Below, in pieces: positions 12,176 to 63,930 of a stretch of 64,000 bases of DNA. The first letter of the stretch is position 1. Each line of letters starts with the position of its first letter. The notes below the pieces were generated by a model. The model did not search any database, was not told where the DNA came from, and saw nothing but the letters and a program-made list of their open reading frames with translations. The DNA comes from Thermoproteota archaeon (lineage in GTDB: Archaea; Korarchaeota; Korarchaeia; Korarchaeales; Korarchaeaceae), in assembly GCA_015522685.1 (NCBI GenBank), contig WALU01000049.1, positions 22,441 through 86,440 of the forward strand. Direction: 5' to 3'. The translations under genes and the position numbers were made by a program.

Positions 12176-12472
12176 TCAGAGGTTCTGGGCGGCAATCCAT
12201 TTTTCCATTATATTGTAGTGGGCTTCTCCTCTGTACTTGGTGACAATCTGGGTCATCCATCTCGGTAAGATAGTCTCTCCAGTTAAAGAAGCCTTAAGAA
12301 CAGTCTTTATATGAGCCAGCTTTGAGAATTCCTTCAGAAACTCATTCAGCTCATCCATCGAGGGGAATGAAAGCACATATGTATACTCATATCCTCTATC
12401 GCCCTTCAATTCCAGTAGTATAGGCACCTTCAACTTAGAAATTTCATCTAGAAAGCCTTCTGGGGATAGCAT
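12176..12472 (-). CDS. Hypothetical protein, possibly the 3' fragment of a decayed gene
   Basis: Protein-like composition; the upstream sequence looks coding but in a shifted frame. Confidence 0.4.
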   Translation of the reverse strand: MLSPEGFLDEISKLKVPILLELKGDRGYEYTYVLSFPSMDELNEFLKEFSKLAHIKTVLKASLTGETILPRWMTQIVTKYRGEAHYNIMEKWIAAQNL

Positions 12473-12688
12473 GATTGGTTGGATCTGAAGAGGACATCAA
12501 TATCTTTCCCTTGTGAAGAGAGGCTACCTTATGTAAGGATGAGGAATCAGGTGAATAGGCTACTGCGAAGAAGTAGGCCTCCGCAAAGATACATCACCCA
12601 AGAGACATTCCTTGTCTCCACTTAAAAACCTTATTCTGATTCGCAACCCATATTTTATTATATAGATTATCATTATCCATTGCAAAGA

Positions 12689-12748
12689 GGCCATCAGTCC
12701 GCCCGTCATACCCCATGATTCAGGTTTAAGGAATTATCATCATCGGCC
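12689..12748 (-). ncRNA. C/D-box guide sRNA; D-guide targets 16S rRNA C1402 (E. coli numbering)
   Basis: Minus strand reads GGCCG-ATGATGA(C)-TAATTCCTTAAAC-CTGA(D')-ATCATGGGGTA-TGACGGGCGGA-CTGA(D)-TGGCC, with a terminal stem. TGACGGGCGG is the exact complement of the universal 16S CCGCCCGUCA. Confidence 0.88.
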
Positions 12749-12852
12749 ATGCTATGATGAAACGAGAGCTATTAACGTTTACCACTATAAACTATAAGGC
12801 AAGCGAATAGCAGCTGTCGGAAATCTTTAATAAGCTCTCTCGGAATTCTAAC

Positions 12853-13362
12853 ATGATGACCAGACTTCTATCCTTCTTGATGCTGTCGCTGATTTCATTA
12901 GTTGTGACAAGTTCTCTTGCATCTGCATCAGTCCTCACCGGGCCTGTAGCCATAGTCTCAAATTCTATAGATATGCCAACTGCAAATAGAACAGCAAATA
13001 TCTTGAAGGAGATGGGCTTCGAGGTGAAGATATTCTTCCCCAGCGAATTTGATGACGCCCTCAAGTATGGGCAGTTTGTGATAATACTGGGGGGCCATAA
13101 GGCGCCTGAAGGCATAGGTCAGATATCCACAAAATTCCTATCCGCCGAAGAGAAGGCAAAGCTTGAAAGAAAGAATTATGCATATTATTTCATCAAGAGA
13201 GGACCTGAAAGGAAGCCTGTTGTCATAATAGCTGGCAATGATAGGTTTGGAACATATAGAGCGACAAATACCTTCCTCATTAAAGGAATAAAAGAATTAT
13301 CAGATTTCATCTCTTCACCTGGAATCGTAATGGTGGCGATGACATCGCCTGCAGGTGATTGA
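12853..13362 (+). CDS. Secreted protein with S-layer-associated domain
   Basis: Signal peptide; IILGGHKAPEGIG...IIAGNDRFGT pattern of archaeal S-layer/cell-surface domains. Confidence 0.7.
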   Translation: MMTRLLSFLMLSLISLVVTSSLASASVLTGPVAIVSNSIDMPTANRTANILKEMGFEVKIFFPSEFDDALKYGQFVIILGGHKAPEGIGQISTKFLSAEEKAKLERKNYAYYFIKRGPERKPVVIIAGNDRFGTYRATNTFLIKGIKELSDFISSPGIVMVAMTSPAGD

Positions 13363-13399: not shown

Positions 13400-14560
13400 A
13401 TGCTAGCATCCCCCCCATAAGCTTACTCAGGGGTAGAGTATTTCTCCCCATGGCCTTGCCCCTGAGGTACCTGGCAGGATGCTCTGATCCAGATGATCCA
13501 ATATTTCACTTATAGAAGCCATTTTAGTAACAGGTCCTCCTTTAATTCCTGTTTTAGAGGGAGGGCCTAGCTGCACTGGTGGCTGGAAGAATAAATGCAT
13601 GTAGCTAGGTATCCCCCTTCCCTATGAAGTAGCTCTATTCTCCTTGCCTTGGATTGGTTCATGTTAAACACTGCTGGAAGGGAAAGAAGAGCTATCAATA
13701 GATGAGATCCTTCATTTCGTTTCTAGCCTCTTGAATGTCATCGAGTCTATATCTATCCAAATACCCGGGAAATCCATTCTCTCAGTATCAACGCAAACCA
13801 TGTTTACTTATCTACTACCTTAAGGCGATTCAGCATCTTTTATCTTCTCTAGTAGGAGAGATAGACCTCTTCTCAAAGCTCTATCTGAATTTTTTCCCAA
13901 CCATCTGGGTCTATTAATTAGCTCTTCTATCTCCTCTTTTTTATGAATCTTCTCGTAGATCTTCAGGCCTAGGTGACCTTGCCTTCTTAAACTGCACTGA
14001 AGGGTAAATCCATTGCCTTCCTCCTTACTGAAGCTGCATGAAACAAATACGCCTTGAGAAACTTCCACCTTCAGCATTTCTATCGCTGATTTCTGTACTA
14101 GGATCTTATTTAAGGTTGATAGCCCTCGAACTTTAAGCTCCGTAAGCAGGTAAGTTGAGAAAATGTTGGCAGAGTTGATGAAATTTGTAGAAGCAGCTAG
14201 CTCCCTTGCGAGAGATGTGGCAGTCTCCAAGGATCCTGACGACCCAGATTTGATTATCATAAGCATGAAATCTCCAAGGAAGAGGTTAGATCAGATGAGA
14301 GAAGAGAGATAATGAGCTAATCACTAGAATTCTCCTCAAGAGCTCCTCCGTTGAAAGAGCCATCAAACCACTTAAGGAGGAGTTCTCCAAACTTAGGTTC
14401 ATAGTGGAGCATGCTGGCGCCGAGTTGGAGGCTTCTAAGACAGATATCTTTATACCATTCATAAACCGAGCGGGAGGAAGGGGAACTTATCAAGCCTCTT
14501 TGAGCATCCCCTTTAAGTACAAGGCTTACCTAGACCTGTGTTTCAGATTATATCATGGTG
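13400..14560. pseudogene. Decayed coding remnants on both strands (includes ORF 13820..14266)
   Basis: + strand 14163 onward: MLAELMKFVEAASSLARDVAVSKDPDDPDLIIISM, then a frameshift to DNELITRILLKSSSVERAIKPLKEEFSKLRFIVEH. - strand: LKIYEKIHKKEEIEELINRPRWLG followed by many stops. Confidence 0.4.
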
Positions 14561-55983: not shown

Positions 55984-56059
55984 GGGCCGGTGGTCTAGAG
56001 GCTATGACGCCGCCCTCACACGGCGGAGACCGGGGGTTCGATTCCCCCCCGGCCCACCA
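55984..56059 (+). tRNA. tRNA-Val(CAC), CCA encoded
   Basis: GGGCCGG acceptor stem, anticodon arm CCGCC-CTCACAC-GGCGG, TTCGATT T-loop, ends ACCA. Confidence 0.97.
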
Positions 56060-60333: not shown

Positions 60334-60408
60334 GCTCCGGTGGTGTAGCCCGGCTAAGCATAGGGGCCTCTCGAGCCCCAGACCTGGGTTCAAATCCCGG
60401 CCGGAGCA
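60334..60408 (+). tRNA. tRNA-Glu(CTC), no encoded CCA
   Basis: GCTCCGG/CCGGAGC acceptor, GGGGC-CTCTCGA-GCCCC anticodon arm, TTCAAAT; TTTATA promoter upstream and a T-tract downstream. Confidence 0.97.
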
Positions 60409-63857: not shown

Positions 63858-63930
63858 TGGGCCGGGGGGGAATCGAACCCCCGGTCTCCGCCTCGTCAAG
63901 GCGGCGTCATAGCCTCTAGACCACCGGCCC
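63858..63930 (-). tRNA. tRNA-Val(GAC), no encoded CCA
   Basis: Minus strand GGGCCGG...CCGCC-TTGACGA-GGCGG...TTCGATT...CCGGCCCA; A-rich BRE and TTTAAG upstream. Confidence 0.97.

Follow-up and report, generated by a model that had tools for sequence, protein, structure and literature searches.

A single-copy box C/D sRNA gene conserved across Korarchaeia, with predicted guides for 16S C1402 and the 915 region

On the minus strand of the window, by which we mean the whole 64,000-nucleotide stretch of DNA that was analysed, positions 12748..12689 read as a 60-nt box C/D layout preceded by a promoter-like element. From 5' to 3' on that strand, the features are as follows:

12770..12780, minus strand: BRE/TATA-like element (AAACG and TTAATA), about 22-32 nt 5' of the first stem base
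12744..12748, minus strand: 5' half of the terminal stem, GGCCG (from the sequence and a stem check in homologs)
12737..12743, minus strand: C box, AUGAUGA (from the sequence; conserved in 27 homologs)
12724..12736, minus strand: D' guide, UAAUUCCUUAAAC, complementary to 16S 914-922 (E. coli numbering)
12721..12724, minus strand: CCUG, the D' register homologous to that of canonical relatives (by homology)
12720..12723, minus strand: D' box, CUGA, 13 nt past the C box
12710..12716, minus strand: degenerate C' box, AUGGGGU (set by comparison with the homologous AUGAGGN and RUGAAGA in relatives)
12698..12709, minus strand: D guide, AUGACGGGCGGA, complementary to 16S 1399-1408
12694..12697, minus strand: D box, CUGA (from the sequence; invariant in 27 aligned sequences)
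12689..12693, minus strand: 3' half of the terminal stem, UGGCC (from the sequence and the stem check)

The C box, D' and D boxes, terminal stem and degenerate C' box named in a preliminary description of this DNA are all recovered when the minus strand is read afresh. The GGCCG/UGGCC stem has 5 bp, one of them G-U, and a short AUC loop lies between the D' box CUGA and the C' box AUGGGGU. C' and D are separated by 12 nt, C and D' by 13 nt if the window's own CUGA is taken or by 12 nt in the homologous register. As placed here, the C' box matches RUGAUGA at four of seven positions, lacks the A of the GA dinucleotide, which a K-loop requires, and stands exactly 12 nt upstream of box D. Another placement, AUCAUGG with a 15-nt D spacer, was rejected, since it leaves only 2 nt from D' to the GA position of C' and is also contradicted by the canonical relatives, in which 12 nt separate the homologous C' from D.

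Around the element, a divergent 169-aa ORF on the plus strand (12853..13362) is intact, has a hydrophobic N-terminus and adjoins the sRNA in all nine relatives examined, with 53-81% identity. A Pfam search of five flanking ORFs of the window, this one included, returned no family, and the same search of three ORFs of a relative returned just a sub-threshold S_layer_C match (E = 0.008) on that relative's copy of the 169-aa ORF. Downstream of the element lies a minus-strand gene (12593..12176) that aligns to 137-150-aa ORFs of relatives in two frames, switching near 12461, which is due either to a frameshift or to an assembly error. Further away, 13422..13736 (plus strand) is a remnant, with five in-frame stops, of a gene of about 300 aa that is intact in the relative G013 (36% identity over 116 residues), where it too has no Pfam family. 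The picture of an RNA surviving "amid decayed genes", drawn in the preliminary description, thus holds for the remnant and for the downstream gene with its change of frame, but not for the divergent 169-aa gene, which is intact and conserved.

How far does the box layout carry by itself? A relaxed box pattern finds only this site in the 1.48-Mb genome, and five shuffled genomes give 0, 0, 0, 1 and 1 matches; the layout alone is weak evidence for the element, to whose reality the complementarity of the D guide adds support and which conservation settles. Strict dual-box regular expressions run on the whole genome gave no match (none in shuffles either), a terminal-stem scan of the genome gave 11 sites against 3-10 in shuffles, and half-mer scans with rRNA-complementary guides gave 6 against 3-9; in these three scans signal is inseparable from noise, and they miss the element because its C' box is degenerate. 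Judged by such crude pattern scans, canonical C/D sRNAs seem scarce in the genome; a scan for a C box, a D box and an rRNA-complementary guide yielded 12 sites against 2-10 in shuffles, the most plausible further sRNAs lying outside the window at C2:732 (+) and C13:23398 (+). The 60-mer folds at -11.7 kcal/mol, no better than shuffled sequences (z = +0.5), and a poor showing against shuffles is expected of the C/D class.

At gathering thresholds, the only Rfam matches in the window are three tRNAs, and the element belongs to no curated family. A permissive search of 601 bases around it returned 12 sub-threshold matches, all of them to C/D-box families. Ten of these overlap the element on its own strand, and the remaining two are adjacent to it or lie on the complementary strand. 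Same-strand scores peaked at 17-18 bits, against thresholds of 42-60; sR2 and snoPyro_CD reached about 18 bits against thresholds of 42-45, no Pyrococcus family rose above 18 bits, and the element stays below the gathering threshold of sR2, snoPyro_CD, sR1, sR41 and the others. The element has the shape of a C/D RNA and lies outside every curated family. As for the tRNAs of the window, at 55984-56059 (+), 60334-60408 (+) and 63858-63930 (-), they are Val-CAC, Glu-CTC and Val-GAC, respectively, and their G+C content (67-73%, against 42% for the genome) fits a thermophile.

Conservation in relatives, which the preliminary description had put forward as a check, is extensive, with the C and D boxes and both guide cores kept. 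BLAST with the 60-mer, run on 40 other genomes, recovered 18 full-length homologs at 76-93% identity; 16 of the 20 congeners have one, and the remaining two represent two other genera. Scanned over 43 genomes of the phylum, a sequence model built from 27 homologs (R1) detects the family in 36 of them, with one full-length copy per genome, a count to be read bearing in mind that many of the 43 scanned genomes contributed sequences to the model. The phylum is here Korarchaeia, the NCBI lineage of Candidatus Methanodesulfokora being among the supports for this delimitation. By family, R1 matches 32 of 35 genomes in f1, one of two in f2, both in f3, neither of the two in f4 and not the single one in f5; the model found no copy in the congeners G004, G006 and G017, which are 80%, 63% and 99% complete. 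Across the 27 aligned sequences, flanks and internal loop diverge while the C and D boxes and the cores of both guides change little or not at all: five of the six columns of the C-box UGAUGA are invariant and the sixth is conserved in at least 90%, UGAGGA standing in its place in two sequences, and besides the invariant CUGA of the alignment, box D is CCGA in genus g2. In each of the 27 homologs the ends pair as a stem over 4 bp or more, with compensatory variants such as GAGCCG/TGGCTC, AGTGTA/TACACT and TGTGG/TCACG. The 29 homolog loci listed carry, at a fixed upstream distance, an A/T-rich TTAAWA, TTTTAT or TTATTA, mostly after AACG, and this conserved BRE/TATA-like element would, from its form and position, act as a promoter. 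One further complete family member was met on a 16-kb contig (L141) in a metagenome-assembled genome labelled Sulfurovum sp., with the C box, an AUUCCUUU guide, an GAUGGGCGG guide, the D box and a 6-bp terminal stem; this is probably a mis-binned archaeal contig.

The genome also encodes the proteins that such an RNA would need. Fibrillarin (287 bits) and Nop5 (Nop, 220 bits) are adjacent genes on contig C38, and two genes belong to the L7Ae family (Ribosomal_L7Ae, 94.6 and 60.2 bits). RsmI is the bacterial protein-only 2'-O-methyltransferase of C1402 (NCBIfam TIGR00096); it would share with the predicted role of the element the same nucleotide and the same modification, but it is a protein enzyme that uses no guide RNA, and its model has no match in the window genome, which is 92% complete. 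Overall, we are strongly confident that the element is a genuine box C/D sRNA gene.

Regarding its targets, the rRNA of the window genome is of limited help: the 16S breaks off at model position 828, where the contig ends, the 23S has no match in the assembly, and both 16S target sites are absent from it. The pairings were therefore tested on the complete rRNAs of congeners. UGACGGGCGG forms 10 contiguous Watson-Crick pairs with 16S 1399-1408 of the congeners G012, G015 and G002, and this is the best site of the window's D guide in 16S and 23S together (10 of 12 pairs); in the three congeners, scores fall to 9.5 for the runner-up in 16S and to 9 for the best place in 23S. A run of 10 contiguous pairs at any place in 16S or 23S is attained by just 1.5% of 2000 random 12-mers. 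All nine family members with an assembled 1400 region read ACACCGCCCGUCAACC there, and in the window genome CCGCCCGTCA is found elsewhere at a single unrelated site, on contig C52. Counted from box D, the guide runs A1, G2, G3, C4, G5, and G5 faces C1402, so that the 10/10 pairing and the box D + 5 assignment to C1402 proposed beforehand are both reproduced on the 16S of three congeners. In the 27 sequences, the GA and the GGGCGG of the guide are invariant, with C or U between them. For the E. coli numbering of this target we relied on the established landmarks G1405, U1406, C1407 and A1408. The E. coli line in the alignment of Dennis et al. (2015; PMC4644070) agrees with the numbering used, and an identical guide end (GGGCGGA followed by CUGA), that of Ignicoccus sR11, is assigned to C1402 by Seistrup et al. 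(2016; PMC5389701).

The case for the second guide is of another nature. Against AAGGAAUUG, that is 16S 914-922 of congeners and the segment proposed in the preliminary description, the D' guide forms eight contiguous Watson-Crick pairs plus a G-U at 922; beyond 914 comes a mismatch opposite 913 and then two A-U pairs. This is the best rRNA site of the D' guide in G012, G015 and G002 (10 Watson-Crick pairs and one G-U out of 12), with a score that is unremarkable, being equalled by 22.5% of random 12-mers. The support for this predicted target is evolutionary rather than score-based. In the AUUCCUU of the guide, four of seven columns are invariant in the 27 sequences and the other three are conserved in at least 90%, and in five of 11 genomes the guide nucleotide facing 913 changes together with the rRNA, pairing as U-A in G012 and G015 (U in the guide, A in the rRNA) and as C-G in G018, G022 and G024. 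The other six genomes, those with the window's guide nucleotide, have an A-G mismatch there. The mismatch opposite 913 (A-A or A-G) adjoins the predicted target, and the A-G mismatch would weaken D'-guided methylation in this clade. Taken from the register of canonical relatives, the ancestral D' target would be A915, when the window's own CUGA, one nucleotide further along, would give A914.

The internal motif that should serve this second guide has decayed in the genus. It is degenerate in 16 of the 17 genus members, the GA (xxGA) of D' being kept in only two of 17 homologs and C' often lacking its A, and in three species the D'/C' boxes have turned into a plain CCCC/GGGG hairpin. By comparison, members of genera g2, g3 and g5 and of family f3 have a canonical D' of CUGA, CGGA or CCGA, and their C' is RUGAAGA, RUGACGA or RUGAGGA, in the layout C, 12-13 nt, D', 3-4 nt, C', 12 nt, CUGA/CCGA. 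A second locus matching the half-pattern in G012 (L156) has no upstream C box and was set aside as a chance match. In-vitro studies in archaeal systems suggest that both motifs contribute to the efficiency of methylation, and in eukaryotic snoRNAs D'-guided methylation tolerates degenerate internal boxes. Either D'-guided methylation tolerates the decay of the motif here, or the D' guide is kept for pairing alone.

From the architecture, the conservation, the complementarity and the presence of the protein genes, we infer the following course of events. A gene with its own promoter would give an archaeal box C/D sRNA of about 60 nt, whose terminal C and D boxes would form with the stem a kink-turn bound by L7Ae, upon which Nop5 and fibrillarin would assemble. 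The 12-nt D guide, paired with 16S 1399-1408, would then present C1402 to the active site of fibrillarin by the fifth-nucleotide rule, and the D' guide, paired with 914-922, would lead to methylation of A915 (in the register of canonical relatives) or of A914 (with the window's CUGA). Alternatively, the D' guide may be mainly a second anchor, given that the internal C'/D' motif is degenerate in the genus, and would join the rRNA segments flanking helix 28 during folding of the subunit. On these grounds, we consider it probable that the sRNA guides 2'-O-methylation of C1402 while its second guide anchors or methylates at 914/915.

The alternative that survives best would keep the pairings and drop the chemistry, making the RNA an assembly chaperone that clamps 914-922 and 1399-1408, which border the 3' major domain on either side, with no methylation from D' and perhaps none from D. 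It would account for a D' guide core that is almost unchanged in the 17 genus homologs (one has GG for AA at the 5' end) although the GA of D'/C' is mostly lost, and it fits the fact that in congeners (L032-L034) 16S 921-927 (UGACGGG) is perfectly complementary to 1402-1408 (CCCGUCA). By the same complementarity, the D guide nearly copies rRNA 921-930, with one difference, and masking 1399-1408 could prevent the formation of a wrong helix. A similar clamp on helix 28 has been proposed for sR17 of Nanoarchaeum equitans (PMC4644070). However, pairing alone requires neither the terminal C/D boxes nor the 12-nt D spacing nor the C1402 register, all of which are strictly conserved, and chaperoning and methylation are compatible with each other; we therefore regard a pairing-only function as unlikely.

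A related and bolder reading, in which the RNA would be above all a dedicated 30S assembly clamp, is one that we hold as doubtful. Its guides would grip the stretches that adjoin helix 28 on its 5' and 3' sides and would block the non-native 7-bp pairing of 921-927 with 1402-1408, methylation of C1402 timing the release. Three things point to it, namely the persistence of the D' guide while the D'/C' K-loop decayed in the genus, the recurrence of both specificities on one Methanopyrus sRNA (in swapped order) and on neighbouring Ignicoccus sRNA genes, and the place of the element among the very few recognisable C/D sRNAs of its genome. If this were true, the RNA would be an ancient core biogenesis factor and not one of many stabilising guides.

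Returning to the predicted guide for C1402, it is possible to ask whether the D guide of a genuine C/D sRNA might address a 23S site or another RNA instead. In G012 (L017) and G015 (L018), the D guide is the variant GAGACGGGCGGU, which has lost the pair with A1408 and matches 23S ACCGCCCUUCUC at 11 of 12 positions (at 2835 in G012 and 2280 in G015, as extract positions with flanks counted), position 5 likewise lying opposite a C. The guide of these two genomes may thus have two targets, and the target read from complementarity is not unique in every species; moreover, the rRNA assembled for the window genome lacks the 16S target site. Nevertheless, on 23S the guide of the window's element achieves no more than 9 of 12 pairs, six of them contiguous at most, and the invariant core GAYGGGCGG fits the universal 16S in every lineage, when it is the 5' end that varies. 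Nor is a tRNA target convincing, as the best match among the 40 tRNAs of the genome has 9 of 12 pairs with five contiguous. A target other than C1402 is, in our estimation, highly improbable.

Little can be said for the element being the 5' leader, processed or not, of the minus-strand gene at 12593..12176, to which we give a very slim chance. The two are on the same strand, with the element about 95 nt upstream, and the gene is syntenic in G013, G019, G009, G002 and G007. But in G018, G014, G012 and G015 the sRNA persists without this gene beside it, the gene changes frame in the window, and C/D sRNAs excised from longer transcripts would still count as sRNAs. Finally, a chance arrangement of boxes in non-coding DNA that makes no RNA, for which one could invoke a box pattern expected about 0.4 times per shuffled genome and a folding energy no better than that of shuffles, is virtually without probability, being already contradicted by the phylum-wide conservation, the invariant boxes and guides, the covarying stem and the conserved promoter.

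From a comparative perspective, one close likeness to the element is sR114 of Methanopyrus kandleri, an expressed C/D sRNA that carries both specificities (PMC4644070). One of its guides, GUGAUGGGCGGA, matches 16S 1399-1409 by complementarity, in the register of the element's D guide, and the other, AUCCUUUAAGUG, is complementary to the 909-918 region (PMC4644070). The order is nonetheless swapped, with the 1400 guide at D', the 91x guide at D and CCGA as boxes, and the targets given in that source are 16S U894 (E. coli U912) for D and "NP" (no prediction) for D' (PMC4644070). The likeness reflects either homology or convergence. In Ignicoccus hospitalis, the D' guide of sR11 terminates in GAUGGGCGGA just before CUGA, exactly as in the homolog of genus g3 (PMC4644070), and Seistrup et al. 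(2016) state that sR11 could direct Cm1402 (PMC5389701). Like the D' guide of the element, sR09 of the same species bears a guide for the 915 region, CAAUUCCUUUAU, and the coordinates listed for sR09 and sR11 are about 120 nt apart (PMC4644070). Unlike the element, Ignicoccus has its two guides on two sRNAs, with the C1402 guide at D', and methylation of C1402 was measured there at less than 50% (PMC5389701).

As for the 914-922 segment, sR105 of Sulfolobus acidocaldarius, sR70 of M. kandleri and sR57 of P. calidifontis carry AUUCCUUU guides against it, with listed targets A896 and A897 (alignment positions) that we equate here with E. coli A914 and A915; their partner guides differ from that of the element in addressing G876 and G868 (same alignment) and not the 1400 region (PMC4644070). 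Nanoarchaeum equitans sR17 resembles the element as a dual guide with targets on opposite strands of helix 28, and Dennis et al. (2015) proposed it as a long-range folding chaperone clamping that helix, but it addresses other positions, A915 and U1371 as that alignment numbers them, with guides that show no sequence relationship to those of the element (PMC4644070). In the same organism, Cm1402 was measured and no guide was found for it, as reported by Seistrup et al. (2016; PMC5389701). The modification is likewise listed for Pyrococcus abyssi, whose Cm1369 corresponds to E. coli Cm1402, yeast Cm1639 and human Cm1703 (PMC11542601, Table 2), in a 2024 review whose reference list includes Gaspin et al. 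(2000) (PMC11542601). The equivalence of yeast Cm1639, guided by snR70, with E. coli Cm1402, on which the preliminary description leaned, is stated in PMC2794176, where human Cm1703 is tabulated with them, and snR70 and its human and plant counterparts would share with the element the guiding of 2'-O-methylation at the C1402 equivalent (PMC2794176, PMC11542601); they are, however, eukaryotic snoRNAs, whose families are absent among the Rfam matches of the element at E values up to 10. This likeness is one of function, with a guide forced by the universal target.

The novelty initially attached to the element was consequently overstated, as archaeal guides for C1402, guides for the 915 region and the idea of a bridging or chaperoning sRNA are already in print, and the RNA class, the target and the bridging idea must be counted as known. 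What is new, as read from sequence comparison, is the predicted single-copy sRNA family conserved across Korarchaeia, the apparent joining of 915 and 1402 guides in a single RNA, of which Methanopyrus has a counterpart in swapped order, and the seeming decay of an internal box motif whose guide stays near-invariant. The part of the literature examined holds no description of C/D sRNAs from Korarchaeia, a group that it names in other contexts. Archaeal guides for C1402 have been noted only sporadically, and the korarchaeal family supplies a conserved, single-copy predicted one. To our knowledge, Cm1402 is among the very few ribose methylations made at the same rRNA nucleotide in bacteria, by a protein, and in eukaryotes, with a snoRNA. 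The family also lends itself to comparative work on two points: whether selection can maintain a guide once the box motif that serves it has decayed, and whether small-subunit assembly repeatedly relies on one RNP to pair with both the 915 and the 1400 regions. Its practical value is modest and lies in annotation, in a seed alignment for an RNA family and in a testable target prediction.

Beyond Korarchaeia, the exact C1402 half-pattern occurs in five of 301 genomes of the phylum of G034, a figure obtained with an exact pattern that misses variants. None of these five has an AUUCCUU partner guide in the same RNA, each carrying another partner guide, and the coupling of the two guides is therefore not general in that phylum. 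Loci L192-L195, from family f27 of the same phylum, are C/D sRNAs whose D guide, UAGAUGGGCGGA or AAGAUGGGCGGG, stands in the C1402 register, and their differing D' guide (UUCACCUC...) might pair with the upper end of helix 44, on its 3' strand.
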